A stretch of 32,000 bases of DNA from Nitrosomonas europaea (GTDB lineage: Bacteria; Pseudomonadota; Gammaproteobacteria; Burkholderiales; Nitrosomonadaceae). Location of the stretch: the NCBI RefSeq assembly GCF_900167395.1, contig NZ_FUWK01000028.1:1-32000 (forward strand), in the 5' to 3' direction. Numbering within the stretch: the first letter of the stretch is position 1; every line of letters begins with the position of its first letter. Position numbers and translations under genes: made by a program. Below the pieces are notes generated by a model. It saw only the letters and a program-made list of their open reading frames with translations, ran no database searches and had not been told where the DNA came from. Below are positions 11,033 through 27,694 of the stretch, in pieces.

Positions 11033-14000
11033 TTAAGCAGATTCCCGGGACGGAATCCACTTCCTCCATTTTCCCAGTAACGGAAAATAAAGCGCCAGGT
11101 GCATAGGGCGATCTTCCATACGCTGCAGTACTTGTGCATAGCGATCCAGTTGCGGACGGTAACGCAGCTGTTCCCGATCGAGGAATTCCTCAAGGCTGCC
11201 ACCGGTATGAGACCCCGTCTTGTAGTCGATGATCCAGCGCACACCTGCTGCATCCACGAAGGTTCGATCGATGATGCTGACAGAAATCGAGTGGCCCGCT
11301 GCAATTGCCGTTGGAACAGACAGCGCCCATTCACAACGCGCTTCCTGATGCCGATTGCTCAGAATCCAGCGGCCCGTTTCATCTTCCACACACATGGTCC
11401 TGAGGGCTCGTGCAACCTGCTGCACCGCTTTTTCCAAATGCCGGGGGGTGATACCAGATTGTATGAGTAACGACCGCCCCGCCAGTTTGAGAGCTTCCAG
11501 ATCCTGATGATCCACATTCTCGACCCCGATCAGCCCGATACGATGCAACAGGCAGTGCACGACCACCCCCACCAGTCGAGCGGGCTCACCCGCCCAATCG
11601 AAATCAACCGGCTCTTCTGTCGTGCCGGCCTCATTCGCATGCATGGCAACTGCAACGGCTTTGGGCAACGGCGGGGGTTGCCAGCCAGACACCAGGCGCA
11701 CCATGCCAACAAGCTGCAAACCTGTATGTACATTCGATGCAGGCAAATCTCCGATAGCAGCTTCGCGCGATCGTGCCAGAAAATCTGCTGCCACGGCAGG
11801 CCATAACCTGGCCAGCAGGGTATCCTCCGGTGGTTTCAACGCATCATTCTCCTGCATATCCGGATCGATCCTGAGATGCCCCAGTAAATGCAGATTGTGT
11901 TTCGCCCGGGTAACTGCCACATACAGCAATCGCGCCTCTTCCAGCGCAGTCCGTTTCTTTTCTTCAGACAGGATGTAGGCGGAAATCGGATTTTTATCGC
12001 TCCCCGCTGCACTGATCGGCGCGCACAATAAACCCGGATGCTGTGACTGATCGTGAAACTCCAGCCAGTTGAGCAGCTTCTCCTGATCCCGTCTGGGAGA
12101 TTTACCCAGCCCCGGCAGAATTACTGTATCGAACTCCAACCCTTTGGCCTTGTGCAAAGTCATGAGCTGCAATGAATCGTCTGCCGCCACATCCGGCAGA
12201 GCAAACAACCGTACCAGCCGTTCATCCAGCTCCTGGATATCGGGTCGATAGCCGGTCACATCGAAATTTTCCAGCAACTGAAAATAGACTTCGGCGTCTG
12301 CCAGATCTGTTTCATTCTGTACACTGGCGGGCCCTCCCAGACTGACCCATATGCCCTCCACGCATCTTCTCAACGACATCCTGTCGTAGAGCATCAACGC
12401 ACGCTCCAGAATCGGCAATACCCTGTTCACCCGCTGACCGCCTTCTTCACTCAAAACACCTGAACCGGCACAGGCACGCAATGAATCGATCAGCACATGC
12501 TGTGGCAGCGTATTGGCAACGGTATGTAAATCCTGCAGGGAAAGTCCGCAAAACGGGGCGCGCAATAATGCCAGCCAGGCGATACGATCAGCCGGATGCA
12601 CCAGGGCCCGGGTCAATGCCATCAAATCCCGGATCACCACCCGTTGCGCCAGCTGTTCGATTTCCACTGCCTGGAAACGCAAGCCTTTTCGCCTCAAATG
12701 CACAACGATACTCGCCAGATGGCTGCGATTACGCACGAGTACGGCAATTCTGCCATCCGGTTGTGCAGCTCTCGCCTGCGCTACGATCGCCCCCACCTGC
12801 TCCGCCTCGGCCCGATCATCTTTTTGCAGATAAGGATAAATCCTGACCGCCTCCCCGCTGGAAGCCGCATGAAACGCTACGGAACTCGCATACGACACGG
12901 CACCGGTGCTTACGCTATCCGTATCCGGCAATATCCGTGGAAAATAGCGGTTGACCCACTCGACGATCCCGCTCTGCGAACGGAAATTGACTGAAAGACG
13001 CAGAAACCTCATCTGGATCTGGCCAAAATAGCCACTATCGCGAATATCCAGAAACAACCCCACTTCAGCCTGCCGGAAGCGGTAAATCGACTGCATCGGA
13101 TCTCCTACCAGAAACAGCGTGCGGCCGTCTCCGGTCTGCCAGCCGGCAGTCAGCCGCTGCAGCAATTCGGCCTGGCTGGAAGACGTATCCTGAAATTCAT
13201 CCACCAGCAGATGGTGAATACGATAATCGAGTGCCAGTGCCAGATCGGTCGGCATTTCCGGTTCACCCAGCGCACGGACAGCCGCCATAGCAATCTCGGT
13301 AAAATCCACCTGGCCGTGCTGCCGGAAAACCAGCAGCAAATATCCGGCAGCCACCTTGAGCAGGCTGAACAGGGCCTGCAGCGTTTCCCACTCTTCATCG
13401 GTATATCGTTCCGGAGGTAACTGCCTGAGTAACTGCAACTGCTGACGAAATGTCTCCTCGCTCTGCAAAGCCACCAGCAACTCACTCATCCGCTGCTTCA
13501 TTCCGTTCAGGTATTCTTTTACGTCAGCATCACGCACTGACGATGGTGCCGGGAACCCGTTTGCCTTCGTTACCTGTTTACGCCAGTCTCCCGTTTGGGT
13601 GAGCAGGAAATCCGCCATACTCTCCCAGACAAGACGATCTTCAAGTGCGTTACCAGGCCAACGGACTGTATTGCTATCGGCTGATCCTGCTTCTGACAGA
13701 TTGACCGCGGCAAACTGCATCAACTCGATAATTTCCGACTGGCAGCCGGCAGGAACAGCATCAGCCAATCGCTCTATTGCTTCCGCAATCCGGCCTGACA
13801 GCACGGATTCCAGACGATCACGCATATCATCCGAATTAGCGGCATCAACCACACCTCGCAACCATAAATCGCGCCGCGCCAGCATATCGGCAATCAACTG
13901 CTGCAATCTATCGAGACGATTATCCAGATGACCGATCAGATGTTCGATTGCCGCAGTCCACTCACCCTCTTCCTCCAGCGCCTCGACTGTCAAACGGGCT

Positions 14001-14500
14001 GCTTCCAGATACAATCTGTCCGCATCCTCTGCCACTGATGACAAGGCGCCCTGCCGGGAACAGACCGGCATACGGTCGACCAGCCAGGCGCACAAGGAAT
14101 CGATCGTCTGGATACGCAAACGTGACGGATTTTGCAGCAACTGCCAACCCCGCGCCTGATCATGCGCCAGTACCCGGTTTGCCAGCTCCCGTAACTGGCG
14201 CTGGTAAGCATCGTTCAGCAGTGCGGTTTCACTCTCCGCATCGCTATTTATATCACCAGCTGTATCGCGCAAAGCCTGCAGAATCCGATGCTTCATTTCA
14301 CTGGCCGCCTTGCGCGTAAACGTAATGGCAACGATCTCCTCCGGTTCCTCTACCGTAGCAAGCAGCACCAGAAATCGCTGCGTCAGTAACCCTGTCTTGC
14401 CCGATCCAGCCGGCGCTTGAACGATGAAGGAATGCCACGGATCAAGCGCCTGCTGGCGTTCTCTCTGATCTGGAATCTCCTGTTGCAAGACTGTGTTCAT
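11033..14500 (-). CDS. addA: AddA-type UvrD-family helicase with C-terminal PD-(D/E)XK nuclease
   Basis: Walker A 'VQAPAGSGKTG', 'ITFTRKAASEM', motif II 'LLVDEFQDTS', 'FLVGDPMQSIYRFRQA', 'LSVNFRS', 'MTLHKAKGLEFD', 'LLYVAVTRAK', nuclease 'RWIIDYKTG'. Confidence 0.85.
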   Translation of the reverse strand: MNTVLQQEIPDQRERQQALDPWHSFIVQAPAGSGKTGLLTQRFLVLLATVEEPEEIVAITFTRKAASEMKHRILQALRDTAGDINSDAESETALLNDAYQRQLRELANRVLAHDQARGWQLLQNPSRLRIQTIDSLCAWLVDRMPVCSRQGALSSVAEDADRLYLEAARLTVEALEEEGEWTAAIEHLIGHLDNRLDRLQQLIADMLARRDLWLRGVVDAANSDDMRDRLESVLSGRIAEAIERLADAVPAGCQSEIIELMQFAAVNLSEAGSADSNTVRWPGNALEDRLVWESMADFLLTQTGDWRKQVTKANGFPAPSSVRDADVKEYLNGMKQRMSELLVALQSEETFRQQLQLLRQLPPERYTDEEWETLQALFSLLKVAAGYLLLVFRQHGQVDFTEIAMAAVRALGEPEMPTDLALALDYRIHHLLVDEFQDTSSSQAELLQRLTAGWQTGDGRTLFLVGDPMQSIYRFRQAEVGLFLDIRDSGYFGQIQMRFLRLSVNFRSQSGIVEWVNRYFPRILPDTDSVSTGAVSYASSVAFHAASSGEAVRIYPYLQKDDRAEAEQVGAIVAQARAAQPDGRIAVLVRNRSHLASIVVHLRRKGLRFQAVEIEQLAQRVVIRDLMALTRALVHPADRIAWLALLRAPFCGLSLQDLHTVANTLPQHVLIDSLRACAGSGVLSEEGGQRVNRVLPILERALMLYDRMSLRRCVEGIWVSLGGPASVQNETDLADAEVYFQLLENFDVTGYRPDIQELDERLVRLFALPDVAADDSLQLMTLHKAKGLEFDTVILPGLGKSPRRDQEKLLNWLEFHDQSQHPGLLCAPISAAGSDKNPISAYILSEEKKRTALEEARLLYVAVTRAKHNLHLLGHLRIDPDMQENDALKPPEDTLLARLWPAVAADFLARSREAAIGDLPASNVHTGLQLVGMVRLVSGWQPPPLPKAVAVAMHANEAGTTEEPVDFDWAGEPARLVGVVVHCLLHRIGLIGVENVDHQDLEALKLAGRSLLIQSGITPRHLEKAVQQVARALRTMCVEDETGRWILSNRHQEARCEWALSVPTAIAAGHSISVSIIDRTFVDAAGVRWIIDYKTGSHTGGSLEEFLDREQLRYRPQLDRYAQVLQRMEDRPMHLALYFPLLGKWRKWIPSRESA

Positions 14501-14782
14501 CGTTCTAGTCCAGGTACATTATTAGAAACCATCATTGCCAAAAGCTACTGAGCGGCCCGGGGCAGTTCACACAGCCTGAATATAAGATTCGATTTCTATT
14601 CAAAGATCGAATTTACTTGGTTATTAATAGACCAGGCTTTATATCCAATTGAGGATATACAAATGACAAACTCTTAATTAAAGCTACCCTGTAGATGCAC
14701 CTATAGAAAGTGCTAAAACAAAAAACCTGGAAACCGGTGGATACAATTGCGACGAAGACTATGACTTTTTCTCTTTGAGAGA

Positions 14783-15928
14783 TCAGCTAACAGCTTTACA
14801 CAAAACCTCAACGACCCGGTCTTGCTGCTCTACTGATAAACCAACCCAGAGGGGTAACCGAACCAATCTCTCAGATTGTTGAGTAGTAATTTTCAGGTTG
14901 CCATGTATACGTCCGTACCGTAAACCAGCCGGGGAGGAATGAAGGGGCACATAATGGAACACAGACCAAATATCGTTTCTCTTAAATTCGTCAAGTACTT
15001 CTTGCCTATCAATTTTTGATGCCAATAATACATAATACATGTGGGCATTATGCTGACACTCTTCCGGAACGATTGGACGACGCAGAATCTCTTTAGCTTC
15101 AAGTGGCCCAAGCAACTCATGATATCGTTGCCAGCTTGCCAGCCGCTCGTTAGTTATACGGTCTGCTTCTTCAAGCTGCGCCCACAGGAAGGCAGCGATC
15201 AGCTCACCCGGTAAGAATGACGAGCCCACCTCCTGCCAGGTGTACTTGTCCACTTCGCCCCTGAAGAACTGACTGCGATCGGTCCCTTTTTCGCGGATGA
15301 TCTCTGCACGAAGGCTCAGATCAGGTGTATTAACGAGTAGCGCACCGCCTTCTCCCGAGATCACATTTTTTGTTTCGTGGAAACTGTAGGCTCCAAGATC
15401 ACCAATGCTGCCGAGGGCCCGCCCTTTGTAGGTTGACATCACCCCCTGCGCTGCATCCTCAACGACCTTCAATTCATGCTTCTGGGCGATGGCCATAATC
15501 GTATCCATCTCGCACGCCACTCCCGCGTAATGCACGGGAGCAATGGCACGGGTACGCGGCGTAATGGCGGACTCAATCAGCCGTTCGTCCAAATTCAGAG
15601 TGTCTTCTCTGATATCGACAAACACAGGAACCCCACCACGTAGCACAAAGGCATTGGCGGTAGATACAAAGGTGTACGACGGCATGATGACCTCGTCACC
15701 GGGCTGAATATCCAGCAATAAAGCAGCCATCTCGAGTGCCGCCGTGCAAGAGTGAGTAAGCAGACCCTTATTACATCCAGTCCGCTCCTCCAGCCATGCA
15801 TGACAGCGCTTGGTGAAAGGCCCATCGCCTGCCAAGCTACCATTGAAGTGCGCTTCAGCGATGTAGTACAACTCCTTGCCTGTCATGTGAGGCCAGTTGA
15901 ACGGGATGCGGTGATTTGTATTTTTCAC
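14783..15928 (-). CDS. wecE: dTDP-4-keto-6-deoxyhexose 4-aminotransferase, WecE/RffA-like (DegT/DnrJ/EryC1 family)
   Basis: Long stretches match E. coli WecE as I remember it: 'LLDIQPGDEVIMPSYTFVSTANAFVLRGG', 'PVHYAGVACEMDTIMAIA', 'VVEDAAQGVMSTYKGRALGS', 'IIREKGTDRSQFFRGEVDKYTW'. The GTG start overlaps the upstream stop (GTGA). Confidence 0.9.
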   Translation of the reverse strand: MKNTNHRIPFNWPHMTGKELYYIAEAHFNGSLAGDGPFTKRCHAWLEERTGCNKGLLTHSCTAALEMAALLLDIQPGDEVIMPSYTFVSTANAFVLRGGVPVFVDIREDTLNLDERLIESAITPRTRAIAPVHYAGVACEMDTIMAIAQKHELKVVEDAAQGVMSTYKGRALGSIGDLGAYSFHETKNVISGEGGALLVNTPDLSLRAEIIREKGTDRSQFFRGEVDKYTWQEVGSSFLPGELIAAFLWAQLEEADRITNERLASWQRYHELLGPLEAKEILRRPIVPEECQHNAHMYYVLLASKIDRQEVLDEFKRNDIWSVFHYVPLHSSPAGLRYGRIHGNLKITTQQSERLVRLPLWVGLSVEQQDRVVEVLCKAVS

Positions 15929-18174
15929 ACTCTCTCCAAAACCCTGCGTCGAAACGTTTGCGAAAACTTAAAAATAATCAGAACAAACAAGAAAATCCAG
16001 AAAACATGTGCAATCCAGGCGTAGCGGGCAAGAGGCTTGAATTCGAGACGTACTCGGCGAGTTTCTTGAGGCACTAACACGCCCTGAAACACTCCATTGA
16101 CCTCCACAGTCTGCGCGGCCTGCCAACCCTGATTGGTTTCTGCAAGTGCCTCCCAGTCGCGATGAAACTTCTGACTCAATAAAAAAACAGATGGTGCGGA
16201 GGAATTTACCTCAAACTCTAATACATCACCCTGATCCAAAATCTTGACGGGTGTGTTCGTAACCATACCTCGCGGGTCATCGAGCACAAGTTTTGTCGAG
16301 CTCATATCAAGCTGCGGGGGGGTTACTTGCATGCTGTCGCCCATCCGTGAAACCACCCGGTAAAGGTGGATACCCGATTCCTCACTCAAAAACTCCAAAT
16401 TTTCATGCGCCAGCTTGCCCGACGAGAGGATCAGGCTGATATTGCTCATCCAAAACATTGTGCCGGCATAGTCTGGGTCGATGGCTCCATTCCAGCGACC
16501 ATATGTCTGCACTTCCCCACCAAGCGCCTTGATCAAGGTGTGGTATCGGGTGGAAGAGAGGCTGTTATAGCTATGCACAGAAGACAGATCGAGTGTGGCG
16601 TTAAGGTTCGGCGGCAACACTGAAATCCCTGGGGCTGCAACAGCATAACGACTGCCAGCCGGCAGATTTTCCCTAACCTTCTCAACCAGAGGCGAGGTCA
16701 TCGCTATCTGCGCCGGATCTTGCTTAAGCATCAGCGGATAAGAGGTCATACCCAGAACCAACACAAGAGCCATCATCAAAAATAACGGACGGTATCGATC
16801 GTATTGCGCGATTAGTAGCCCAGTCACCAGCAGCATTCCGATGACAATCTCCCAATGAATCGAAATATGCTGCGAAACACCGTATGCAACACCAATCGCA
16901 ATCACTACCAGCGCAACTGCCGCTCCAGCAAATACGGCGCTCGAAAATTGACGGTGATGCGTGCGCCTGGCAAGAGCATCAATACCGAACGCAGTGATAA
17001 TGGTAAGAGGAAGTGTGATACTCCCCAGTGGCGTGCTTCGCGAAAGATTGAACCCAAAGTATTTAACACCCAACACATAGAGTGGATGTACGAAGGCAAG
17101 CAGGCAAAATATAAGAATCGCCAGCCACCACCCCCAGGTTTCCTTGAATGAAGTGACTAACGCCACGACTCCAAAGAAAATAGCGATCAACGTTACGCTC
17201 AAACCGTCGTAAGAAAATGGGAAAGATGGCGCGATCGGATTGCCAAAAATTTCAGGGATTGTACTCAGTACAAAAAAGCGAACCAGCTCAGTAAAGCTGG
17301 CGAACTTTGGAAGCACCATCGTGAAAAACGAGGGATCGGGTGCAACTCGTGCAGACTCGGACGAGAGAATGAACAGATCTCGATAAACAGGAAAAGCGAG
17401 CGCGGCTCCAACAACCAGAGCAGATAAAGCAAGAGTAAGGAATTTGGCAAGTTCAAGTCGGCTGACGCGTGCCTGATGGTATGCCAACCAGAGACCATAG
17501 CCACCCAGCAGGTAGGCATGAAAGACAACCGGCTGCGGGTACGCAGTCATCAGTAGACTGTAACCGCTGAAAGCCAACACGCCCCAGCCCAAAATATCCG
17601 GGCGTTTCGCCAAACGAGTAACAGCCCACAATGCCCCCGCTGCCCAGCACCACACGGCCGGGAACATGGGAAAGGTCAGCCAGTACATGAACAACGGAGA
17701 TGTCGCCAATCCTAGTCCTGCAATCAAGCCAGCTATAGGACTTAAGCCAACTTCCCTGGTAAACAACAAGACAAATAAACCGGCAAGGAAACAGAAACCT
17801 AATGACAACGTGGTGATGAAGCGCCAAGGGCCATCAACCAATCTGGTAATCACCCAAGACGGCAGATAGGCTGAACTAAAGCCTGAAATTTGATAGAGCG
17901 GCCGCCCAAGCTCTGTATTATTTGACCAGAGAGGTAACCAACCAGATCGGGCCATCGTTAGATGCTCTGTTATTTCTGGGATATACGCATTTGTGAAGTC
18001 ACTAAACTTTCTGTTCTCAATGAGGGAGCTATCTAAGTTTACAAGCTCAACGTGACCAACCTCTATCTCCTGCCGGTGTGGTGCTACAACGTAAGAAAAA
18101 AAACCCGAAAACAGTACAGCAGCTACTGCAATGTAATAGATCAACACATGCTTGTAGGAGGAAAATGGAAGCAT
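15925..18174 (-). CDS. Large polytopic membrane protein with C-terminal soluble domain; putative GT-C glycosyltransferase (YfhO-like)
   Basis: About 750 aa. After TM1 there is a loop 'MARSGWLPLWSNNTELGRPLY' resembling the YfhO-family N-terminal loop. Roughly 12 or more hydrophobic segments are followed by a ~250-aa hydrophilic region and a final TM. ATG 18174 is preferred; a GTG at 18222 is possible. Confidence 0.5.
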   Translation of the reverse strand: MLPFSSYKHVLIYYIAVAAVLFSGFFSYVVAPHRQEIEVGHVELVNLDSSLIENRKFSDFTNAYIPEITEHLTMARSGWLPLWSNNTELGRPLYQISGFSSAYLPSWVITRLVDGPWRFITTLSLGFCFLAGLFVLLFTREVGLSPIAGLIAGLGLATSPLFMYWLTFPMFPAVWCWAAGALWAVTRLAKRPDILGWGVLAFSGYSLLMTAYPQPVVFHAYLLGGYGLWLAYHQARVSRLELAKFLTLALSALVVGAALAFPVYRDLFILSSESARVAPDPSFFTMVLPKFASFTELVRFFVLSTIPEIFGNPIAPSFPFSYDGLSVTLIAIFFGVVALVTSFKETWGWWLAILIFCLLAFVHPLYVLGVKYFGFNLSRSTPLGSITLPLTIITAFGIDALARRTHHRQFSSAVFAGAAVALVVIAIGVAYGVSQHISIHWEIVIGMLLVTGLLIAQYDRYRPLFLMMALVLVLGMTSYPLMLKQDPAQIAMTSPLVEKVRENLPAGSRYAVAAPGISVLPPNLNATLDLSSVHSYNSLSSTRYHTLIKALGGEVQTYGRWNGAIDPDYAGTMFWMSNISLILSSGKLAHENLEFLSEESGIHLYRVVSRMGDSMQVTPPQLDMSSTKLVLDDPRGMVTNTPVKILDQGDVLEFEVNSSAPSVFLLSQKFHRDWEALAETNQGWQAAQTVEVNGVFQGVLVPQETRRVRLEFKPLARYAWIAHVFWIFLFVLIIFKFSQTFRRRVLERV

Positions 18175-18181
18175 GTGAATG

Positions 18182-19057
18182 CTAAGCCGATTGTTTTTTT
18201 GCCACAACCAGCCTGGATCCACCGACGGGATAATTCATCCCAAGCCTAATCCCTGCAAGCTCTAACATCATTAAACCGTAAAAAACCTTATTCAAAGCTG
18301 CGTTGATTTTAAGTTCGCCGGCAGGATCGAAATCTTTTGTTTTTCGCTTCTGCAAGACTCGTGAAAGCATCATTACTGGCAAAAGGCTCGTTACAAAAGA
18401 ACTGCTCCTTAAAAGCTCAAAACCGGCGGTCAAAACCTTCTGCTCGATCTCGACACGCGTGTATCGGCGCACATGGCAGGCATAGTCGTCAGAAGCGCTC
18501 CACAACCGGGGATGCTGAGGAACGGTTAGCAGCAAAACACCACTAGGCTTAATGGCGTTATGAAGTTGAGCCAGGACAGTTTCATCTTCTTCGATGTGTT
18601 CCAGCACATCAAAGGCGCCAATGGCATCAAACTCTTCCACAAAAGGCACCCGACGAGCATCCATCTGCATGAAATGTGTGGAGGGAACGCGTTTAGCCGC
18701 ATGAAATAAGCCAGCCAAAAAAATCTCACTGCCATTTAATGCTATTTCAGGGCAGGCACGAGCGATACCCGACAGAACAAAGCCAGTACCACAACCCACC
18801 TCCAAAAATGCGCCAGCGTTTGGCTTGTAGGTGCGCAGCGCCCAGAGAATAAGCTCGTTACGCGCCCGAAACCAGAAATTACCCGCCTCTAATCTGGATA
18901 GCTCTGAGAAGTATTCAGGCTTAAAACCTCCGCCACCATGTGCAAACTCAGAGGCATGAGCCTCTATTCCGTTCAAGCGTTCTGGCTGATAACCGCATGA
19001 AGGACAGGCCCAATCGGCAGAAGAGAAGAAATTTTCGCACTGAAGACAAACTTTCAT
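18182..19057 (-). CDS. Class I SAM-dependent methyltransferase with N-terminal zinc ribbon
   Basis: 'CLQCENFFSSADWACPSCG' (CxxC..CxxC), SAM motif I 'LEVGCGTGF', 'AFDVLEHI'. The C-terminal tail is hydrophobic/amphipathic. ATGA overlap with GtrA. Confidence 0.8.
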   Translation of the reverse strand: MKVCLQCENFFSSADWACPSCGYQPERLNGIEAHASEFAHGGGGFKPEYFSELSRLEAGNFWFRARNELILWALRTYKPNAGAFLEVGCGTGFVLSGIARACPEIALNGSEIFLAGLFHAAKRVPSTHFMQMDARRVPFVEEFDAIGAFDVLEHIEEDETVLAQLHNAIKPSGVLLLTVPQHPRLWSASDDYACHVRRYTRVEIEQKVLTAGFELLRSSSFVTSLLPVMMLSRVLQKRKTKDFDPAGELKINAALNKVFYGLMMLELAGIRLGMNYPVGGSRLVVAKKQSA

Positions 19058-19488
19058 GAGGGAACTCCTTCGGATTCTGCCGCACTCTGCGCAAATACAA
19101 AAAACCGCGACATAACAAACAGAAAGATGGCCACCACGATGATTGCTATCGCCTGTACGATTTGATGCGGAAAACCTAACCAGTCCACAAACAACAGCAG
19201 CAAAACTAAATTCAGCAGATAGCCTGCAACTTGCGCCAGCAGGTAACGGACACCGGTAACGCCAATATGTCCGTCATGTCGAAAAGTATAACGTCGATTG
19301 GCGAAAAACCCAATTGATGCCCCTACGAAGTACAGAGCCGTCATCGTTATCTTGGGAGCGTCCCATAAATAGGTCAGGAGGAGGTAAAAGGCATAACCTA
19401 AAACATTTGTCAGAATGCCAATCAATGCATAGCTAAACAATTGCCGAAATGTTTTTCGAATGGACAAGATTCCAGAATCAGCATTCAT
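19054..19488 (-). CDS. GtrA-family membrane protein (polyprenyl-phosphate-sugar translocation family)
   Basis: 144 aa, four hydrophobic segments, 'FFANRRYTF' GtrA signature. ATGA overlap at both ends. Confidence 0.8.
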   Translation of the reverse strand: MNADSGILSIRKTFRQLFSYALIGILTNVLGYAFYLLLTYLWDAPKITMTALYFVGASIGFFANRRYTFRHDGHIGVTGVRYLLAQVAGYLLNLVLLLLFVDWLGFPHQIVQAIAIIVVAIFLFVMSRFFVFAQSAAESEGVPS

Positions 19489-20270: not shown

Positions 20271-20273
20271 CGT

Positions 20274-20912
20274 TCACGCCTTCCTTATCAGAATTGTGAA
20301 CTCATAAAGCCCATAGTCATGAAGTAACGCGACTTGGCGGGAATAGCGGCGCTTGCATAAATCAAACAATCGACACGGGTCAGCATAATAGAGATAGTCG
20401 CGCTTTTTGTCCTCGTCGGAGTAAGAAGTCAGGCAGTTGAAAGCGAATCCAAGACTGCTGGTTCGGTTCAGTACGTCCAATGTACCCAGCAGATAGTCAA
20501 ACCACTCAGCATCCGTTCGCTCCAGACGCACATTGAAAATGCCGCTGGCGACACCATAGTCCGCCACTTGGTCTGGTTCAGTTGAGGTGATAAAGCGAGC
20601 TTGATTGGCGGCAGTGTGTCGCTGCCTGGCAGCTTTGATCATTTCGTGGGAAACATCCACCCCGAGGTATATACAGGCTGCATACTTGTCTCGCAGATAG
20701 TCCAGCAATGCGCCATAGCCACAACCCAGGTCGTTCAAGGAAAAACCAGGCATCTTCTTCGGGTCAATCACTTTACAGAGCTGCTCAAATCGAATCGTTT
20801 GGCTTTCTTCACCATTCCAGTCGACCCCGCGAGGCGTATCACCATGTTCCGCAAGTTTTTCAGCGTAATACGTTGCAACTTCGTCGAGCAGCTTAGTCTT
20901 GTTGTTTTGCAT
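20274..20912 (-). CDS. Class I SAM-dependent methyltransferase
   Basis: Motif I 'LNDLGCGYGALLDYL', post-I 'YLGVDVS'. 212 aa. Overlaps the GT2 gene end by 20 nt. Confidence 0.75.
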   Translation of the reverse strand: MQNNKTKLLDEVATYYAEKLAEHGDTPRGVDWNGEESQTIRFEQLCKVIDPKKMPGFSLNDLGCGYGALLDYLRDKYAACIYLGVDVSHEMIKAARQRHTAANQARFITSTEPDQVADYGVASGIFNVRLERTDAEWFDYLLGTLDVLNRTSSLGFAFNCLTSYSDEDKKRDYLYYADPCRLFDLCKRRYSRQVALLHDYGLYEFTILIRKA

Positions 20913-21822
20913 AAATCTGCCTCACGATGGTATAGGGGCGCTGCTTGGTTTCCGAGAATATCTTGGATAAGTAGATGCCCACCACACCAATGAAAGAGAT
21001 AATCATCCCACCAAGAAGCCAAATAGAAGCCATTACGGATGTCCATCCGGCTAAAGGTTTTGCCAAGAAAAGCCAGTGAGTAACCAGATAAGCGATATAA
21101 GCCAAAGCAAACAACGAGATCGATATACCGATATAAAAAATGCTGACCAGTGGGGTGTTACTGAATGATGTCACCGAGTTGACCAGCAAGGACATTTTTC
21201 TGCGGAAGGTGTATGTGGTCTCGCTAGTATTGTGCTTTTTGATGACATAAGGGCGCTGGTCAAACCCGGTGATGTACCACAAGCCCGCCATAAAAACTTC
21301 CCGCTCTTCATGGCGCAGCAAAGCATTAACGTACCGACGAGTCATCAGGCGCGCGGTGACAACATTTTCCGGCAATGCAAGACCCGTCAGTGCTTTGAAA
21401 AAGCGATAGAACCACTGTCCACTCCAGCGCTCAAACCAGCTCCCTTTTCTGCGTTCCTGAATTCCGTACACCACATCACAACTCTCCTGCTCCATCTGCT
21501 GCACGAATGTCTCTAGCCATTCAGGCTCCTCCTCCAGGTCGCTATCAATCAAAAAAACTCGCTCCCCCTTTGCGTGCGCCAAGCCAGTCATCATCGCCTT
21601 GTGGTGTCCAAAATTACGCGACAAATCAACAACAACAACGTGCGAATCCTGCTCCGTGAGTTTGACGGCCAGATCCAAGCTGTTGTCTGGTGATCCGTCG
21701 TTTACAAGAACTATTTCGTAATCGTCCCCAACCAGCCGCCTTGCCGTGGCACTCGCACGCTCGTGAAATTCATTGATGTAGGGCGCAGACTGATAAAGAG
21801 TTGCGACGATCGAGAGCTTCAT
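20893..21822 (-). CDS. GT2 polyprenyl-phosphate glycosyltransferase (ArnC/GtrB/CsbB/DPM1-like)
   Basis: 'LSIVATLYQSAPYI', 'IVLVNDGSPDNS', 'LSRNFGHHKAMMTGLAHAKGERVFLIDSDLEEEPE', plus two C-terminal TM helices. This is the standard ArnC/GtrB architecture. Confidence 0.9.
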   Translation of the reverse strand: MKLSIVATLYQSAPYINEFHERASATARRLVGDDYEIVLVNDGSPDNSLDLAVKLTEQDSHVVVVDLSRNFGHHKAMMTGLAHAKGERVFLIDSDLEEEPEWLETFVQQMEQESCDVVYGIQERRKGSWFERWSGQWFYRFFKALTGLALPENVVTARLMTRRYVNALLRHEEREVFMAGLWYITGFDQRPYVIKKHNTSETTYTFRRKMSLLVNSVTSFSNTPLVSIFYIGISISLFALAYIAYLVTHWLFLAKPLAGWTSVMASIWLLGGMIISFIGVVGIYLSKIFSETKQRPYTIVRQIYAKQQD

Positions 21823-21944
21823 TTGAACAGTTGATCAAGGTTGAATGGGATATGTACTGCCAACAACCACCAAAAGGTGTGCTCAATCAACACAATCCCT
21901 TACGATTGGTTAGTTCGCCAGTAACCAGGCTGTGCAAGATCTTG

Positions 21945-22277
21945 TCATGGGTCAGTTTGCGCGTTGCAAGTGAGCGCACTTGCAGCAATGATGGCATCTG
22001 GCAGCTTTACGCGGTGGCTACGACGCAAACCAATAACCATATCTTCAATCTCTTTGGTCAGGGGCAGATACTGGAGGCAGGCCAGTTTTCCACTAATCAG
22101 AATTTCTTCTTCCGCAGTCAATCCCGGAAAGCCCAGTAACTCCATACGAGTGATTGCGCTATAGCCGCAACGCCGGGTATCAATCTGCTGATTACTGATC
22201 ATGGACAATGTTTCAGGATTGGATTTCAATAGCCCAAGAATAAAGTTGGTATCAAGCAGCCAGTCAATCCCATTCAC
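21945..22277 (-). CDS. vapC: PIN-domain toxin (VapC-like), possibly C-terminally truncated
   Basis: A GTG at 22275-22277 overlaps the antitoxin stop (GTGAATGGGATTGA). '(M)NGIDWLLDTNFILGL' carries the first acidic residue, with 'ITRMELLG' and 'LPDAIIAASAL' further on. The ORF ends abruptly at 'NAQTDP'. Confidence 0.7.
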   Translation of the reverse strand: MNGIDWLLDTNFILGLLKSNPETLSMISNQQIDTRRCGYSAITRMELLGFPGLTAEEEILISGKLACLQYLPLTKEIEDMVIGLRRSHRVKLPDAIIAASALTCNAQTDP

Positions 22278-22485
22278 GGCGCAGTGCCTCCTGTACTGCC
22301 AACGGTTCCCCGGCAAAGCAGGCTGAATGTTCCAGCCCACCGGCCATATCAATCAGCCGGAAAGGCTCATCTGGTTGCGGAAGCATGTTCTTCTGGTGTA
22401 GAAATTCGGCAAAATCCAGCAACTCTGCCAGAGCAGCAGGTGGTAGCGTACTACTGAGTTTGTAAAGCCGTTCGATTGTTGACAT
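22264..22485 (-). CDS. Antitoxin, DUF2281-like
   Basis: 'MSTIERLYKLSSTLPPAALAELLDFAEFLHQK' resembles the DUF2281 N-terminus commonly paired with PIN toxins. AAGAGGA lies 7 nt upstream of ATG 22485. The track ORF extends to a TTG at 22503. Confidence 0.6.
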   Translation of the reverse strand: MSTIERLYKLSSTLPPAALAELLDFAEFLHQKNMLPQPDEPFRLIDMAGGLEHSACFAGEPLAVQEALRREWD

Positions 22486-22562
22486 TGTCATTCCTCTTTC
22501 CAACGTATCGTATCGATTATCCGATCAAATTTCCTGCTCGTCATATCGAAATGATCGTGAGA

Positions 22563-23255
22563 TTATTCCACATACTTCATATAACGCTTCGCGTTCTTCC
22601 CGCAATTGAGCAACAAATCAAGAATGGTAACGCCATGTGTGAATTCCCCCCAGAGTTGCTGATATTCCGGATACCCGATGTAATCAAACCAGGTGAGTTT
22701 GATGCCATTCTCTTTAAAAACCTGCTCATCCACGTAATCTTTTGCCGCCGGGCCTGAGATGTACTCAGTGCCACCAGCCTGCACACAAAGGTCAGCAAGG
22801 CGTTCGGTCTTGCCATCGAGCAGGGTGTAATCCCATGAATTTTTAATTACCGTCTTGATCCCCAGGTAGTTACAGATAGCTTCAATAAATCTCCTGTTCA
22901 ATTGTGAAATATGGGTGAAGGTCTCTGCGAGATAGAGTGGCTCCAGCCATGCAGCAATCTCAGTAAAATGCGGTGAACGACGATAGTTCTGCACCAAGGC
23001 TTTCCAATGCGCAGCTGCCCAATCAGTACCGTCGATTTCGGTCTCGCGAATCTTTTGATGGTATTTACCCTTCACCAGAACCGGAACCGTGAGCCACTGA
23101 ACACCTTGAGGTGTTTTGATCTGATTACGATTTCGCCAATCGCGGCGCGTATATTGCATATCATCGTAGAGGATGAACTCATCTACGGCAGCAATCATAT
23201 CGAAGTAACCCTTCCACGGTATGTAGTTGGATTGCACGATGGCGACTTTTTTCAT
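22563..23255 (-). CDS. WbqC-family protein (function unknown; found in O-antigen/amino-sugar clusters)
   Basis: '[47 protein letters not shown]' is the characteristic WbqC-like N-terminus. ATGA overlap with the upstream membrane-protein gene. Confidence 0.75.
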
Positions 23256-24835
23256 TGTCCTGCGTTTCTCGTTTTATAGATTTGATACGCTGGATTATGT
23301 GAATTTGGCACCAATTCAAAATTGTTCAGGATAAATTGGTAAATTAACGGATGTGTATTTTTAAAACGCAGCTCGTCACGACCATCAAGAGGCAGATCAA
23401 AAATAAACGCAAAACCAGGGTCAGATGCCTTGATGCGTTCGATCTCTTTTTTCTCGAATGCTCCTGTGCGGGGAAATAATGCATAAATCTCCCACATGGG
23501 CGACCTTCGCTCCAGCAAAGCATAAGCACCAGGCCAAAAGGGTGTGGCAATAAAAGACCGTCCATCTGGAGCGAACTGATCAGTCAATTGATGGAGCAAT
23601 GCAATGTCACTCGCCGTATTTGGATCGACCTGGAGATACTTGCCAGATATATCCACATTGACGCACTGTTTGCTTGCCAGGCATTGCCACCCAGGGTGAA
23701 ACACATGCATCACCCAGAAGCTTGTCATAAATAGACCAGCAGCAAGAACCCACTTTGTTTTGCTGGACGCACTTGACGCTATGGCCAGAATCCCGATCAA
23801 AAGTGGGAATATACCTTGAGCAAGGTGCCCAACGTCAGCGCGAGAAAACGCGTAATGCGCATAAGGAAGCGCGAGAAATGCTGATGCGACCAACACTGGC
23901 GGTAAGGGCTTTTCCTTCAATCCTCGATAAACGACCCATATAACTGAAAGCCCCCCAAAGATTAGGGTTCCAATAAAGAAAATACCGATCAATACACCCC
24001 GCGCAGCATCACCGATAGAAGAGGCAGCAAAGTTGATTGTCCACGGCCAGGGCACGGGTAGTGGCAAATTAGTGGCTTTTTGTTCAAACAAAAATCGCAC
24101 ACTTTCCCAGAATGCAACTGCAAAACCTGGAATCAGGAGCGCCATGAAAATAATAGGGAGAAAGCCGATCGTAACCCCTACACTCCAAAGTACAAACCCT
24201 TTCAAAAATCCGGTATCAGAACGGTTCCTGATATTGAGCCAAGCGATAACACCAAGGCTACCTACAGCACCGTAAACGCCATGATTACGACCAAAAACAG
24301 CAATCAATCCGACACAGATGCCAGCAATAAGATAGCGTTTGGGAATGGGGTTTGAAACAAGATAAGTCAGAATTCCGATCAGAAATATAGAGATGGAAAT
24401 ATCGAAAAGCTTGTGGCGTGGAAACATCCATAACACCAGTATCGCTGCAGAGATTATCCAGAAGAGAATATCAGCTTTATCTCTGCTCTTTGTCGACTGC
24501 GCAATCAACAACAAACCAACGAATAAGCCGAGGCACTGGAAAACAGCCACTGCTATACGGACACTCATAATACCGTTGTCACCAGCAACACTCAGTAGTG
24601 CTGCAACCCAGTAATAACGACCGGGATCATAGGACATAAAATCACGAATCGGGATTTCACCCAGCAAAACTCGCTGGACGCCGTACCACAGATAGCCTTC
24701 ATCCCACAAGTTAAAGCCCTTGTTACCCTGCCAAATAAACAGTAAAAAGATGACAAGGCATGAAATCGTCAGAATCTGGATTAGTCTATATTTATTGTTT
24801 TGTATTTCTGGCTCATCCATATACGCATCCGGCAC
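23252..24835 (-). CDS. Polytopic membrane protein; putative GT-C glycosyltransferase (ArnT/PMT-like)
   Basis: About 12 hydrophobic segments. The first extracytoplasmic loop, '[34 protein letters not shown]', has an acidic DE motif where GT-C enzymes carry theirs. About 150 C-terminal residues are soluble. Start is GTG 24835 or ATG 24820. Confidence 0.45.
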
Positions 24836-24964
24836 TAAAATGCCATTGTAATCTACAGCAAAGAGAGCGTCACCTTCTCACGGATTGTTGCGAATGGCAT
24901 CAGCACGTTGCACTGGCCATCCACCAGGGTCCATAGACAAGAACAAGTAATAGCACTGCAAATA

Positions 24965-27694
24965 TCAACAATCATCCACAGCTTCCAGCGATTCACCGAT
25001 TCTGCACAGAGGTTTGAGCTCGCAGTAAGTGCAGGTTTGCGGGTATTGTTTAGGGCTCACTCTGGCTTCTCCGGCCATAAAATCCTGCACCAGTTGCTCG
25101 ATCGTCTGGCGCCAGCCGGCCAATACTTCATCCCAGCTTGCTGCTTCCCGGGTATGTCTCAGGTTTTCGAAAGATTTTATTCCCAGGATCGATACTTCTT
25201 CGCTTGCTACACCCTCAAACGCAATATCACCTGCTCTGATGCGGGCAAATGCAATCCCGGCCAGCCCGTCATCAGTAAATGCCAGACTGTATAGCGGCAA
25301 TTGCGGTTCATCGGGGCGATCGCCAAACCACGCACTTGCTTTGACTTCACCGGTTTTGTAGTCGATGAGCAGTTCACCCCCTTCTTCCAGCGTATCGATG
25401 CGGTCTATCCTCAAATTGATGCGCAGGCCGTTCAGTTCAAGCTCCGTTTCCATTTCCCGGCCTGAAACACGGAAAGGGGGGCGCTGCTTTTCCATTTCCA
25501 GCCACGCCAGCACGAGAGCATGCAATCGTTTGCTTTCAAGTGCTTGCAGACGCTCACCAAAAGTGTGCGGATAGCGCGGAGCGATTTCGTATATCGCTTC
25601 ATTCACCTTGCCGGCGACCAGTGCATTCAGCTCACCAGGGGACAAATTTGCCAGTGCTGCTAACGAATCCAGTTCAGCCCAGACCATTTCCATGACCCGG
25701 TGCAGCAAAGTGCCGCGTACCAGCGCATTCAGACCGATCTGTATGCGGCCCAGTGGACGGGCGACCAGCCGCAGTTCGGCAAATGCCCGGAACGGGCAGG
25801 CTGCCTGTAACTTGAACAGCTTGCTGCCGCCCGGAATACCCGTTCCGACAAATGTCGGGGCAACATCCTCGGACAGCACCTCCTGTTGTCGACTGTGATA
25901 CACGCTGTCTCGCCAGGCGGATTGCGTACCCATGGCGAGCATTTCTTCACTCAACGCCGGGAAAGCATCGATCAGTGGACTGGAATCGAGGATTTCATCG
26001 CCCTTACGCTGCGGATAGCTGATGACAACCTCAGTAGCATTCGTGGTAATTCGCTGCAACAGCGCTGCTGCCACACGTAATTCACGCCTGGCGCTGGAAT
26101 GCGGCGCATCAACCTCACGCTGCAAGGTCAGAGGAAGAAACGGATTGGGCCGGGATGATGCGGGAAATACGCCGTCATGCAATCCCATGATCCAGAGATA
26201 GTCGAACTGCAGCCCGCTGGTTTCAAACAACCCCAATACCTGCACAGGCGCCTCCGCTGATTCCGGCTGAAAAATCGTACCGGCAACCATGTGCCTGAGT
26301 TGCTGCAGCGCTTCAGTCAAACTGACCGACCGAATTACCCAGTCCAGCGTGGAAAATTCTCTCAGTACCCCCTGCCATGCCTGGATAACCTGATATTCCT
26401 CGCTGGACAATCCTCGCTCACCTGGCCAGCCGATTGCTTTCAGCCACTGTCCGAATCGCTGCGCCCACTCTCCCGGGCTCGTTGGCGCAAGTGATACTTT
26501 CACCTGCTTCATCAAATTACTCAGACATTCGGCCAGCAGTGGACACGAATAGGGCTGGCCACTGCGAGCCGCATTCGTCAGCAGCTTTTGCAGGGTCAGA
26601 TTCCATTCACCCGATTCGCGCAGACGAGCATCCAGCAAGGCGCGCGCATTCATTTCCCGATCCCCGCCCGCAATGAAAGAAGAACGCAGCACACGACTGA
26701 CATGCGGCAACTCGATGACAGTTTCTGATAAACCGAGAACATCCAGCGCCAGACTGACGGGTGGATAGCGGTCGAGCGGCTTGCCAAGCGACAAATTGTA
26801 AGAACGCACCCGATCATGATGCTCCGGCTGCAATGCTTGTGGAATCAGCACTTCATCCAGTGTCTGGCAGATCATTTCCCGCTGTGCGGCCAGTTCCGGC
26901 ACGACCAGCGCAATCCTCGCCGCCGGATTTTCCTCCAAACGTTGCCGTATCCAGCGCGCCGCCTGCCGGATCTCGTCACGACCGTCTGCGCACGCCAGCT
27001 TGCCGATACGATCCGGCTGACCGGATAACTGTAACCACTGCAATGAGCATCCCGTCTGTTCGAATGCACGCAGAAACGATGATTGCTGCGGTGTCCACTC
27101 ATCGAAACCGGTCAACACAAGCTCGTTCGGCACTGACAGGCTGTCGATCTGCACGTATTTCTGCAATATTCCGGGCAGAACGGCGACTGAAAGCCAGCTA
27201 TTTTTCCGGCATTTCGCTTCGAACATCGAGGCCAGTTGCCAGAACAACCGGGTATCGGCGTTATGACCGAAATCCGCTTCCCGGCAGGGAATACACCATG
27301 CATGCAGTGTCTGCCATGCTTCCATGATACGAGCGACAGTCTCGTTGGTGGCCTGTAACGGAACATCGCCGGACTGTTCTGCCAGAATTTCCTGCCAGAC
27401 GAAATACTCCTGATGGGAAGTCAGTAACACCCCCGGGGCCGATTCAATCCGGCTGGAAATGACCACCTCCTGCCACAGCTGCTGCAACCATGCATCCCAG
27501 GGCAGAATATCCGGTGCGGGCCATGCCCCGTGTCCTTCCGCAGACCTGGCCTGATTGAATGCCTGATGAAGGGCACGCGCCAGCCGCCGGTTTCCGGTCA
27601 CAATCGTTGCACAGCCATCCAGTCTTTGGATAAGATCGGTGATGTTAGTCTGTCGGGCGTCGAACGGGCGGGTCGTCATGGCCGGATTTTCCAT
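24965..27694 (-). CDS. addB: AddB-type PD-(D/E)XK nuclease subunit with Fe-S cluster cysteines
   Basis: N-terminus 'TIVTGNRRLARAL'. Nuclease 'LLIDYKTGEV...EPQLPLYSL'. Cys set 'AACPFRAF' plus 'QTCTYCELKPLC' (four Cys, AddB/Cas4-like). ATG 27694 is preferred; the track uses a TTG at 27703. Confidence 0.8.
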   Translation of the reverse strand: MENPAMTTRPFDARQTNITDLIQRLDGCATIVTGNRRLARALHQAFNQARSAEGHGAWPAPDILPWDAWLQQLWQEVVISSRIESAPGVLLTSHQEYFVWQEILAEQSGDVPLQATNETVARIMEAWQTLHAWCIPCREADFGHNADTRLFWQLASMFEAKCRKNSWLSVAVLPGILQKYVQIDSLSVPNELVLTGFDEWTPQQSSFLRAFEQTGCSLQWLQLSGQPDRIGKLACADGRDEIRQAARWIRQRLEENPAARIALVVPELAAQREMICQTLDEVLIPQALQPEHHDRVRSYNLSLGKPLDRYPPVSLALDVLGLSETVIELPHVSRVLRSSFIAGGDREMNARALLDARLRESGEWNLTLQKLLTNAARSGQPYSCPLLAECLSNLMKQVKVSLAPTSPGEWAQRFGQWLKAIGWPGERGLSSEEYQVIQAWQGVLREFSTLDWVIRSVSLTEALQQLRHMVAGTIFQPESAEAPVQVLGLFETSGLQFDYLWIMGLHDGVFPASSRPNPFLPLTLQREVDAPHSSARRELRVAAALLQRITTNATEVVISYPQRKGDEILDSSPLIDAFPALSEEMLAMGTQSAWRDSVYHSRQQEVLSEDVAPTFVGTGIPGGSKLFKLQAACPFRAFAELRLVARPLGRIQIGLNALVRGTLLHRVMEMVWAELDSLAALANLSPGELNALVAGKVNEAIYEIAPRYPHTFGERLQALESKRLHALVLAWLEMEKQRPPFRVSGREMETELELNGLRINLRIDRIDTLEEGGELLIDYKTGEVKASAWFGDRPDEPQLPLYSLAFTDDGLAGIAFARIRAGDIAFEGVASEEVSILGIKSFENLRHTREAASWDEVLAGWRQTIEQLVQDFMAGEARVSPKQYPQTCTYCELKPLCRIGESLEAVDDC

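Follow-up and report, generated by a model that had tools for sequence, protein, structure and literature searches.

Organization of the addB–addA locus

We analyzed a 32,000-nucleotide stretch of DNA from Nitrosomonas europaea (contig NZ_FUWK01000028.1, positions 1 to 32,000; hereafter the window), in which addB and addA, the genes for the two subunits of an AddAB-type enzyme, are separated by an island of genes with predicted roles in glycan modification. addB (NE2178) lies at 24965–27694 and addA (NE2166) at 11033–14500, both on the minus strand. By exact-protein look-up, the locus corresponds to NE2165–NE2178 at about 2.35–2.37 Mb of the N. europaea ATCC 19718 genome (AL954747.1); the gene numbers, from NE2165 (TonB-dependent receptor) to NE2178 (addB), were assigned from the accession order and the label "NE2168". 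Listing of open reading frames (ORFs) together with Pfam and NCBIfam scans showed a distance of 10,464 bp between addB and addA with exactly 11 genes, all on the minus strand, as reported in an earlier note that was made from the letters of the window alone. The coordinates and gene identities given there all held, as did the two bounding spacers at 14501–14782 (282 bp, AT-rich, with a guanine-cytosine (GC) content of 38.3%) and 24836–24964 (129 bp; 144 bp with the ATG at 24820 as the actual start). An assembly or scaffolding artefact was ruled out as the cause of this layout, since more than 10 metagenome assemblies made independently of each other showed the same junctions, as did two complete genomes (AL954747.1 and CP054389.1).

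The island genes are co-directional, and the junctions between them are short or overlapping. Starting from addB, the first gene, NE2177 (23252–24820), encodes a polytopic membrane protein of 522 or 527 amino acid residues with a predicted glycosyltransferase C (GT-C) fold and a conserved W-D-E motif after the first transmembrane (TM) segment. It is followed by NE2176 (22563–23255), encoding a WbqC family protein (Pfam PF08889, 7e-85), and by NE2175 (22264–22503) and NE2174 (21945–22277), encoding a DUF2281 antitoxin (Pfam) and a PIN (VapC-like) toxin (Pfam PIN, 4e-8), respectively. NE2173 (20893–21822) encodes a family 2 glycosyltransferase (GT2) of the GtrB/ArnC/PgfS type, a group of polyprenyl-phosphate sugar synthases, with two C-terminal TM helices (Pfam Glycos_transf_2, 2e-29), NE2172 (20274–20912) an S-adenosylmethionine (SAM)-dependent methyltransferase of 212 residues (Pfam Methyltransf_25/12/11), and NE2171 (19485–20270) a sugar N-formyltransferase (Pfam Formyl_trans_N and N_formyltrans_C). 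NE2170 (19054–19488) encodes a small membrane protein of the GtrA family, a putative flippase for a lipid-linked sugar (Pfam GtrA_DPMS_TM, 1e-18), and NE2169 (MT291; 18182–19057) a second SAM-dependent methyltransferase, of 291 residues (Pfam Methyltransf_23/11/25). The last two genes before addA are NE2168 (15925–18174), encoding a polytopic membrane protein of 749 or 765 residues with a predicted GT-C fold and the NCBI label "YfhO family", and NE2167 (14783–15928), encoding a WecE-type dTDP-4-amino-4,6-dideoxyhexose aminotransferase (Pfam DegT, 4e-85).

The assignment of both flanking genes to an AddAB-type enzyme was confirmed by domain and motif analysis. AddB matched Pfam PDDEXK_1 (3e-26) at residues 634–901, and in a 24-sequence alignment C633, C888, C891, and C897 as well as the nuclease motif D764..D778-Y-K were invariant. 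The four cysteines flank the nuclease domain and are predicted to be the Fe-S cluster-binding set. AddA matched UvrD-helicase (2e-42), UvrD_C (3e-30), and, at residues 974–1132, PDDEXK_1 in Pfam, and it aligned with its relatives over residues 9–1148, consistent with a full-length protein. In public records, addB is annotated as "conserved hypothetical / PD-(D/E)XK nuclease family protein" and addA as "UvrD-helicase domain-containing protein", and the AddAB label is missing for both. In the literature, no paper mentioned NE2166, NE2168, NE2171, NE2173, NE2177, or NE2178.

Adjacency of addB and addA in related bacteria

One genome per species was scanned with an AddB profile, which yielded 80 loci, and these were searched by tblastn with AddA and all island proteins. 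The loci span Nitrosomonas halophila, Nitrosomonas sp. ANs5, other metagenome-assembled genomes (MAGs) of Nitrosomonas, Nitrosospira, Nitrosovibrio, many Beta- and Gammaproteobacteria, Acidobacteriota, Gemmatimonadota, and Latescibacterota; 78 of the 80 extended far enough past addB to be informative. addA was located immediately downstream of addB in all 78 informative loci, and no island-gene match was obtained in the loci of these relatives. The projected spacing between the two genes ranged from −146 to 438 nt (median −2 nt), compared with 10,464 nt in the window. In the three nearest island-free relatives (L089, L090, and L091), whose AddB proteins are 88, 83, and 72% identical to that of N. 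europaea, the gene order was holB-orf179-addB-addA-lpxK, with an addB–addA gap of 49 nt, a gap of 39 nt, and an overlap, respectively. General colocalization of addAB, in 13 of 13 proteobacteria and 20 of 21 firmicutes, was reported by Rocha et al. in 2005, who did not discuss the N. europaea case (PMC1193525). Adjacency of addB and addA is typical, though not a functional requirement.

Every contig with an AddB at least 97% identical carried the island, including eight contigs that were retrieved via AddB itself. Since the outgroups have adjacent genes and all of these contigs carry the island, the split state is derived and belongs to the N. europaea species-level lineage. The proposal of the earlier note, that unrelated DNA was inserted into a normally contiguous operon, was therefore supported by the synteny comparison: the two genes were adjacent in 78 of 78 relatives and in the three closest outgroups, and the island genes did not lie between them across the clade.

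The addB–addA intergenic site was also hit independently in another Nitrosomonas. In N. halophila Nm1 (L009, approximately 12950–13130), the addB–addA spacer contains an extra element of about 165 bp compared with that of Nitrosomonas sp. ANs5 (L010). The element is bounded by 18-bp inverted repeats, GAGGCTGTCCGAGAATAG and CTATTCTCGGACAGCCTC, with a CTAG duplication, and looks like a miniature inverted-repeat transposable element.

Boundaries of the inserted DNA

On the addB side, local alignments showed that homology to L089 and L090 stops at GGAAGCTGTG (position 24977), after which the window continues with GATGATTGTTGA; the blastn end points at this junction were 24977 and 24984. The C-terminus of AddB is SLEAVDDC* in the window and SLEAMRDTEQ* in the nearest island-free relative. 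The last five codons of addB have been replaced, and the final three codons with the stop (24965–24976, DDC*) come from the inserted DNA. On the addA side, clear homology begins about 17 nt before the addA ATG, and blastn alignment resumes at 14516. In a MAFFT multiple alignment with the intergenic regions of L089 and L090, homology reached further back, to CAGGCTGTG|TGAACTGCCCCGGGCCGCTCAGTAG, a region that appears to be a diverged copy of the end of ancestral addB with its stop codon.

The hexamer GCTGTG is present on the minus strand at both junctions: at 24977–24982, where homology with the island-free relatives ends, and at 14570–14575. With these boundaries, the inserted DNA comprises 14576–24976 (10,401 bp). 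Its left spacer (24821–24976, minus strand) holds a promoter-like site, and its AT-rich right spacer (14576–14782, minus strand) is without counterpart in other copies of the gene cassette or in island-free relatives. The remaining segment in front of addA (14501–14575, minus strand) consists of the right hexamer, the apparent addB 3′-end relic, the ancestral spacer, and the addA ribosome-binding region, so that about 75 nt of ancestral sequence upstream of addA have been kept. All island-bearing loci had both junction spacers at 97% identity or more, which speaks for a single insertion. The whole 282-bp spacer on the addA side was at least 99.6% conserved and was found only in island-bearing N. 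europaea loci.

As the earlier note had stated, neither a tRNA (tRNA scan) nor an integrase (Pfam matches of the island proteins) was detected. Its further statement that a flanking direct repeat is lacking was correct for long repeats, since a repeat search of 10.8–28.4 kb returned only short repeats at chance level, and needs amending for the 6-bp GCTGTG that brackets the insert. No terminal inverted repeats were present at the insert ends, and Rfam gave no match at gathering thresholds. The island thus has none of the classical hallmarks of an integrase-type island (integrase or recombinase, tRNA or tmRNA target, direct repeats of at least 15 bp), and it does have the sporadic distribution and atypical composition of genomic islands. 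Because there is no integrase, tRNA, or inverted end and only a 6-bp repeat, integration was probably illegitimate and microhomology-assisted rather than site-specific. Six bases are too short to prove a target-site duplication.

Foreign origin of the cassette

Homologs of NE2168 were 94–53% identical and occurred in very different taxa, including Desulfobulbus (82%), a betaproteobacterial MAG (76%), Allohahella (71%), Hydrogenophaga (67%), Neisseriaceae (63%), and Labrenzia (58%). Clustering at 50% identity divides the family into about 271 clusters (E ≤ 1e-30), and NE2177 showed a similar distribution. The 90%-identity cluster of the WbqC protein NE2176 contained sequences from Nitrosomonas, Desulfobulbus, Aeromonas veronii, and Ca. 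Phycosocius. By comparison, AddB of the host shares only 57% identity with the ortholog in N. halophila.

Copies of the cassette were found at four other loci: L093, L094 (Desulfobulbus), L095 (Allohahella), and L096 (Nitrosomonas sp. GH22). Over the GT2-methyltransferase and GtrA-DegT segments, the cassette DNA was 82–86% identical to L093, L094, and L096, which equals the level between N. europaea and sister species in core genes. The gene order common to the four copies was GT-C (52x residues), WbqC, GT2, methyltransferase, an acyl- or formyltransferase with or without an ORF of about 305 residues, GtrA/EamA, methyltransferase, GT-C (749 residues), and DegT, with an EamA-type protein at the GtrA position in L094–L096. 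The surroundings of the copies differed: the L093 copy adjoins rve integrase fragments; the Desulfobulbus copy adjoins phage-like genes, a serine recombinase, and a TIR gene; the Allohahella copy adjoins Wzm/Wzt O-antigen export genes; and the GH22 copy adjoins a ChpA-like kinase at a locus that differs from addB–addA. A comparison of the flanks of five cassette copies showed a single shared element, an 18-bp block in front of the first gene; the downstream flanks had nothing in common.

In the GH22 copy (L096, 6117–7737), three short ORFs of 231, 180, and 94 residues occupy the position of the 749-residue GT-C gene, which suggests that this gene is degraded there.

The GC content was 47.7% for the island and 52.5% for the rest of the window; addA and addB had 55.5–56%, and the formyltransferase gene NE2171 had the lowest value, 42.5%. 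The codon fit of the island to host genes was slightly poorer. Composition had been put forward as a sign of the insert on the basis of five hand-counted GC values, all of which were exact (26.7, 40.0, 38.3, 53.3, and 55.0%). The lower GC content and poorer codon fit agree with that reading, but the sign is weak, as addA and addB are themselves GC-rich. Composition alone is weak evidence; synteny and cross-phylum near-identity are decisive, and the cassette is foreign and was acquired horizontally.

The phage-like context of the Desulfobulbus copy suggested a phage-borne, gtr-like cassette. This candidate was dropped, as relatives of NE2168 were found neither in IMG/VR viral contigs nor among PLSDB plasmids or INPHARED phages.

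The reverse history, in which the split is ancestral and the relatives have lost, by clean deletion, an island once present at this site in a wider clade, is effectively refuted and retains only a minimal probability. Nothing specific speaks for it; in principle, deletion between short repeats could restore adjacency. It requires independent, precise losses in three successive outgroups (AddB identities of 88, 83, and 72%) in addition to absence in 78 further lineages, and the cassette genes resemble their counterparts in Desulfobulbus and Allohahella far more closely than host genes resemble those of other Nitrosomonas. Moreover, the apparent addB 3′-end relic, which is diverged, is found downstream of the island and differs in sequence from the tail that addB has now.

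Predicted function of the cassette

The description of the island as a glycan-modification island proved right: it encodes a GT2, a GtrA protein, a formyltransferase, a WecE-type aminotransferase, and two proteins with predicted GT-C folds. In NCBIfam, NE2167 scored 701 bits against TIGR02379 (cut-off 435) and 631 bits against PRK11706 (cut-off 375). NE2171 resembles the ArnA N-terminal domain and dTDP-4-amino-4,6-dideoxyglucose formyltransferase, with scores below the cut-offs. The best NCBIfam matches of NE2173, PgfS (188 bits) and ArnC (136 bits), were likewise below the cut-offs, and its hydrophobic TM segments are located at residues 222–290.

NE2168 and NE2177 had no NCBIfam match, and Pfam at E ≤ 10 gave nothing meaningful. 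NE2177 has about nine hydrophobic segments and a C-terminal soluble domain. Its AlphaFold2 model (mean predicted local distance difference test score (pLDDT) 81.2) had STT3, AglB, AftA, ArnT, and Emb as its top Foldseek matches (E 1e-6 to 5e-4, TM-scores 0.4–0.5), and W39, D40, and E41 were invariant. For the NE2168 model (pLDDT 78.8), the top matches were AftD, STT3, ArnT, EmbA/B, PglB, and AglB (E 5e-6 to 1e-3), and D59 in the first loop was invariant. Every significant Foldseek match of both proteins was a GT-C enzyme, and on these models both are predicted to be GT-C glycosyltransferases by fold, without a sequence-family match. The label "YfhO family" (PF09586) for NE2168 was not reproduced in Pfam (E ≤ 10) or NCBIfam, and the possibility that NE2168 and NE2177 are paralogs was rejected, as hhalign showed that their families are unrelated. 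A sequence search of the PDB gave no match for NE2168, NE2177, or WbqC. The WbqC family occurs in O-antigen and exopolysaccharide loci, and the literature describes it only as uncharacterized.

The combination of GT2, GtrA, and GT-C proteins is an established scheme of transmembrane glycosylation (PMC5836110, PMC8035078, PMC7389260), and the cassette encodes all three components: a GT2 of the GtrB/CsbB type, a GtrA protein, and GT-C folds with a conserved acidic residue. From its gene content, the cassette would be a periplasmic glycosylation system of GT2, GtrA, and two GT-C proteins with dedicated sugar tailoring. In such a system, a lipid-linked 4-formamido-4,6-dideoxyhexose may be made in the cytoplasm, flipped across the membrane, and passed to an acceptor in the envelope.

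An Arn-type pathway, which would add aminoarabinose to lipid A and confer resistance to cationic peptides, has analogous parts: an ArnB-like aminotransferase (199 bits), an ArnA N-terminal match (98 bits), the ArnC match, a small flippase, and a fold match to ArnT (5f15), with lpxK nearby. The scores against ArnB, ArnC, and ArnA are, however, far below the respective cut-offs of 631, 529, and 777 bits, and the aminotransferase passes the WecE models instead. In Pfam scans, the island lacked the C-terminal UDP-glucuronic acid decarboxylase domain of ArnA and the deformylase ArnD, other cassette alleles carry an acyltransferase instead of the formyltransferase, and the proximity of lpxK is older than the insertion. 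We consider this pathway improbable as the function of the cassette.

Allelic variation and the toxin-antitoxin pair

L092 is an N. europaea-type contig with the same junctions as the window. The synonymous divergence (dS) between the window and L092 was 0.07 for the flanking gene addA, whereas the dS values for DegT, MT291, NE2177, NE2168, GT2, and WbqC were 0.45, 0.46, 0.32, 0.28, 0.20, and 0.035, respectively. For addB, the other flank, dS was 0.08 against both L098 and L007. In L092, the formyltransferase gene is replaced by genes for a hexapeptide acyltransferase and a 302-residue protein, and no nucleotide homology to L092 was detected across 19489–20279; an acyltransferase with an ORF of about 305 residues also takes the place of the formyltransferase in L093, L095, and L096. 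In L007, the flanking proteins were 93–97% identical and the island proteins 100% identical to those of the window. This mosaic pattern is that of surface-polysaccharide loci exchanged by homologous recombination between conserved flanks, here addB and addA.

The DUF2281 and PIN genes, a candidate VapBC-like pair of type II, overlap, and NE2175 gave a weak match to VapB. The pair is missing from the cassettes in L093–L096, where the WbqC and GT2 genes abut. Because all foreign copies lack it, the pair is a later, secondary addition. In an alignment with the alleles of CP054389.1 (L004) and L092, the PIN gene has a 2-bp deletion (TT) near 21956. The resulting frameshift shortens the toxin from 130 to 110 residues with loss of the C-terminal 23 residues (LLTHDKIL...), and the toxin is probably inactive in ATCC 19718. 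The toxin-antitoxin pair listed in the earlier note is thus present, but it is not an ancestral part of the cassette and its toxin gene is frameshifted.

Integrity and expression of addA and addB

The ratio of non-synonymous to synonymous divergence (dN/dS) of addA was 0.10 between two island-bearing strains, and that of addB was 0.16–0.20 between island-bearing strains. These values are the same as those seen against island-free relatives, which argues that AddAB has been kept under selection since the split. addB and addA are intact and under purifying selection. From these ratios, both subunits are predicted to remain functional and to form a heterodimer that processes double-strand-break ends.

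Promoter scans found a promoter-like site upstream of NE2177 (24873–24845, GTGACG-17-TACAAT). Its −10 element lies inside the 18-bp block (24855–24838), which is identical upstream of the GH22 cassette (L096 and L097). Another promoter-like site was found upstream of the antitoxin gene NE2175 (22544–22516). In the 282-bp spacer, no sigma-70-like site was found even in a lenient scan (no −35/−10 pair reaching 8 of 12 matches on the coding strand of 14480–14900), and no intrinsic terminator was found on the coding strand between NE2167 and addA.

Since there is neither a terminator after the DegT gene nor a sigma-70-like site in the spacer, read-through transcription of addA appears likelier than transcription from a new promoter. 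The alternative, that addA gained its own promoter in the AT-rich 282-bp spacer and is transcribed independently of the island, is possible but distinctly less favored. The spacer has a GC content of 38%, is unique to the island-bearing lineage, and is highly conserved there, AT-rich DNA often has promoter activity, and close relatives already have an addB–addA gap of 40–50 nt, so that translation of addA was already independent. The conservation is little informative, however, as the island-bearing strains are almost identical across the whole region; the scan of 14480–14900 argues against a promoter there, and no terminator makes one necessary.

Other features of the window

Several further features were observed around the locus. 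Between addA and lpxK, the window has NE2165 (8254–10806, minus strand), the gene for a TonB-dependent receptor whose N-terminus carries an STN signaling domain. The three nearest relatives lack this gene and have lpxK directly after addA; it is a second lineage-specific insertion, adjoining the first. lpxK itself (6938–8128, plus strand) is fused to a C-terminal Trm112p-like zinc ribbon (residues 338–377), and this fusion is kept in close relatives. A 185-residue ORF at 4214–4771 (minus strand) is a remnant of a 416-residue family 4 glycosyltransferase that is intact in L089, L090, and L091; it keeps only residues 1–154 (92% identical), and about 0.3 kb stands in place of about 0.9 kb in the relatives.

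On the other side of the locus, a 179-residue ORF without a Pfam family (27781–28320, plus strand) lies divergently between addB and holB and is present in all close relatives, down to N. halophila, with 40–57% identity. Upstream of holB, L004 (1–3155) and L099 (1–1594) carry a gene for a 1757-residue DEAD/Helicase_C/MZB protein, and L090 (1–7985) carries type I restriction-modification, AAA_15, and Fic-like genes, at the place where the window has tmk, amidase, and phosphotransferase system genes.

Discussion

The observations are best explained by a single insertion of a foreign cassette that encodes a periplasmic glycosylation system, with read-through expression of a functional addAB. We regard this combined explanation as probable. 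In this scenario, the ancestor of the N. europaea species-level lineage acquired a foreign cassette of about 10.4 kb in a single insertion, five codons before the addB stop and in the same orientation as the addB–addA operon. The WecE-type aminotransferase would convert host dTDP-4-keto-6-deoxyhexose to a 4-amino-4,6-dideoxyhexose, and the formyltransferase would N-formylate this sugar, which in other alleles would be acylated by the hexapeptide acyltransferase. The membrane-anchored GT2 would then load the sugar onto undecaprenyl phosphate, GtrA would flip the lipid-linked sugar across the membrane, and the two unrelated GT-C proteins, NE2168 and NE2177, would transfer it to an envelope acceptor, which may be lipopolysaccharide, another glycan, or a protein. 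The two methyltransferases and WbqC may add or prepare further decoration.

After the insertion, the addB and addA flanks would have served as homology arms, so that divergent alleles could be swapped by recombination, giving serotype-like variation, and the DUF2281-PIN pair was added later. addA would be read through from the promoters of addB, the cassette, or the toxin-antitoxin pair and be translated from the ancestral ribosome-binding region. Of this scenario, the data establish the insertion with its boundaries, the foreign source of the DNA, the mosaic of alleles, the families and folds of the proteins, and the purifying selection; the mode of integration, the sugar, its acceptor, and the way in which addA is transcribed are deduced.

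Several points weigh against this explanation. The searches of IMG/VR, PLSDB, and INPHARED for a mobile vehicle of the cassette were negative. With only 6 bp, the repeat at the junctions may have arisen by chance, so the proposed mode of integration is tentative, and comparison of the flanks of the five cassette copies gave no origin for the 120-bp left and 207-bp right segments of the insert. Foldseek TM-scores for the GT-C assignments were modest (0.3–0.5). No named NCBIfam equivalog was matched above its curated cut-off by the GT2 or the formyltransferase, so the nucleotide sugar and the product given above are guesses. Consensus scans for promoters and terminators are weak predictors, especially outside Escherichia coli, and the AT-rich spacer may still hold a promoter; a literature search for these genes yielded no expression data.

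A more far-reaching proposal is that the island represents one of several alleles of an uncharacterized ten-gene periplasmic glycosylation system, transferred widely, which comprises WbqC, two GT-C families that lack a profile model, and an exchangeable N-formyl/N-acyl module and which installs a 4-acylamido-4,6-dideoxyhexose on the envelope. In N. europaea, the AddAB cistrons would have been co-opted as homology arms for serotype-like switching of the cassette, possibly for phage evasion. We offer it tentatively, as an idea with the balance of probability against it.

A further interpretation would make the juxtaposition itself functional, with AddAB, the glycan modifier, and the toxin-antitoxin pair co-selected as an anti-phage or variable "defence" hotspot. 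AddAB degrades linear DNA of foreign origin, glycan modification by gtrABC is a known route to the masking of phage receptors, the neighborhood is variable with defence-type genes in sister strains (L090, L004, and L099), and a TIR-domain gene adjoins the Desulfobulbus copy. Against this, all other organisms examined have the cassette at unrelated loci without AddAB, PADLOC defence models gave only generic methyltransferase matches among the island proteins, and the toxin is frameshifted in this strain. A co-selected hotspot is therefore unlikely, and insertion of the cassette followed by allelic exchange is preferred.

The locus is a clean and datable natural experiment, in which an obligate two-subunit repair enzyme tolerates a 10-kb co-directional insertion between genes that overlap or abut in essentially all other bacteria. 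It bears on the importance of operon contiguity and translational coupling. The cassette is broadly disseminated and uncharacterized, with 82–86% nucleotide identity between Betaproteobacteria and Desulfobacterota, and brings together two GT-C enzymes that are invisible to Pfam and the long-orphaned WbqC family. N. europaea is a workhorse of wastewater treatment; differences in surface decoration between strains could influence its aggregation and its susceptibility to phages. The split operon is a tidy example of an ordinary genome-island event and introduces no new principle; the cassette itself is the most original element.

Among known arrangements, the recC-ptr-recB-recD operon of E. coli contains an unrelated gene, ptr (protease III), within the analogous operon for a double-strand-break helicase-nuclease, whose function is kept. 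In E. coli, the intervening DNA is one gene that is conserved across enterics, whereas in N. europaea it is an 11-gene, horizontally transferred cassette whose presence at this site is confined to one species. The O-antigen clusters between galF and gnd in Enterobacteriaceae likewise present divergent alleles at one site between conserved housekeeping genes, and the island resembles them in being more diverged than its flanks (dS up to 0.46 compared with 0.07) and lower in GC content. In contrast to galF and gnd, the flanks here are two cistrons of one operon for an obligate two-subunit enzyme.

The predicted glycosylation route follows the same GT2-GtrA-GT-C logic as GtrA/GtrB/GtrC in O-antigen seroconversion of Shigella and Salmonella and CsbB/GtcA/YfhO in teichoic acid glycosylation of Bacillus and Listeria, in which a membrane-anchored GT2 forms a polyprenyl-phosphate sugar, a GtrA-family protein flips it, and a GT-C enzyme uses it outside the cytoplasm (PMC5836110, PMC8035078, PMC7389260), and horizontal mobility and allelic variability are common to the gtr clusters and the cassette. 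Unlike gtr-type systems, the cassette has ten core genes rather than three, adding a WecE-type aminotransferase, a swappable formyl- or acyltransferase, two methyltransferases, WbqC, and two mutually unrelated GT-C proteins without a Pfam or NCBIfam model, and it was not found on phages or plasmids in IMG/VR, PLSDB, or INPHARED. The Arn system (PmrHFIJKLM) has the same order of chemistry, namely 4-aminotransferase, N-formyltransferase, GT2 acting on undecaprenyl phosphate, flipping, and GT-C; the cassette differs from it in having two GT-C proteins, additional methyltransferases and WbqC, and an aminotransferase of the WecE type. The Pgf system for protein O-glycosylation in Streptococcus mutans (PgfS, PgfM1, PgfE, and PgfM2) likewise combines one GT2 with two large membrane proteins (PMC5856776), whereas the GT2 of the cassette scored 188 bits against a PgfS cut-off of 500, the cassette lacks the PgfE epimerase, and its host is Gram-negative.

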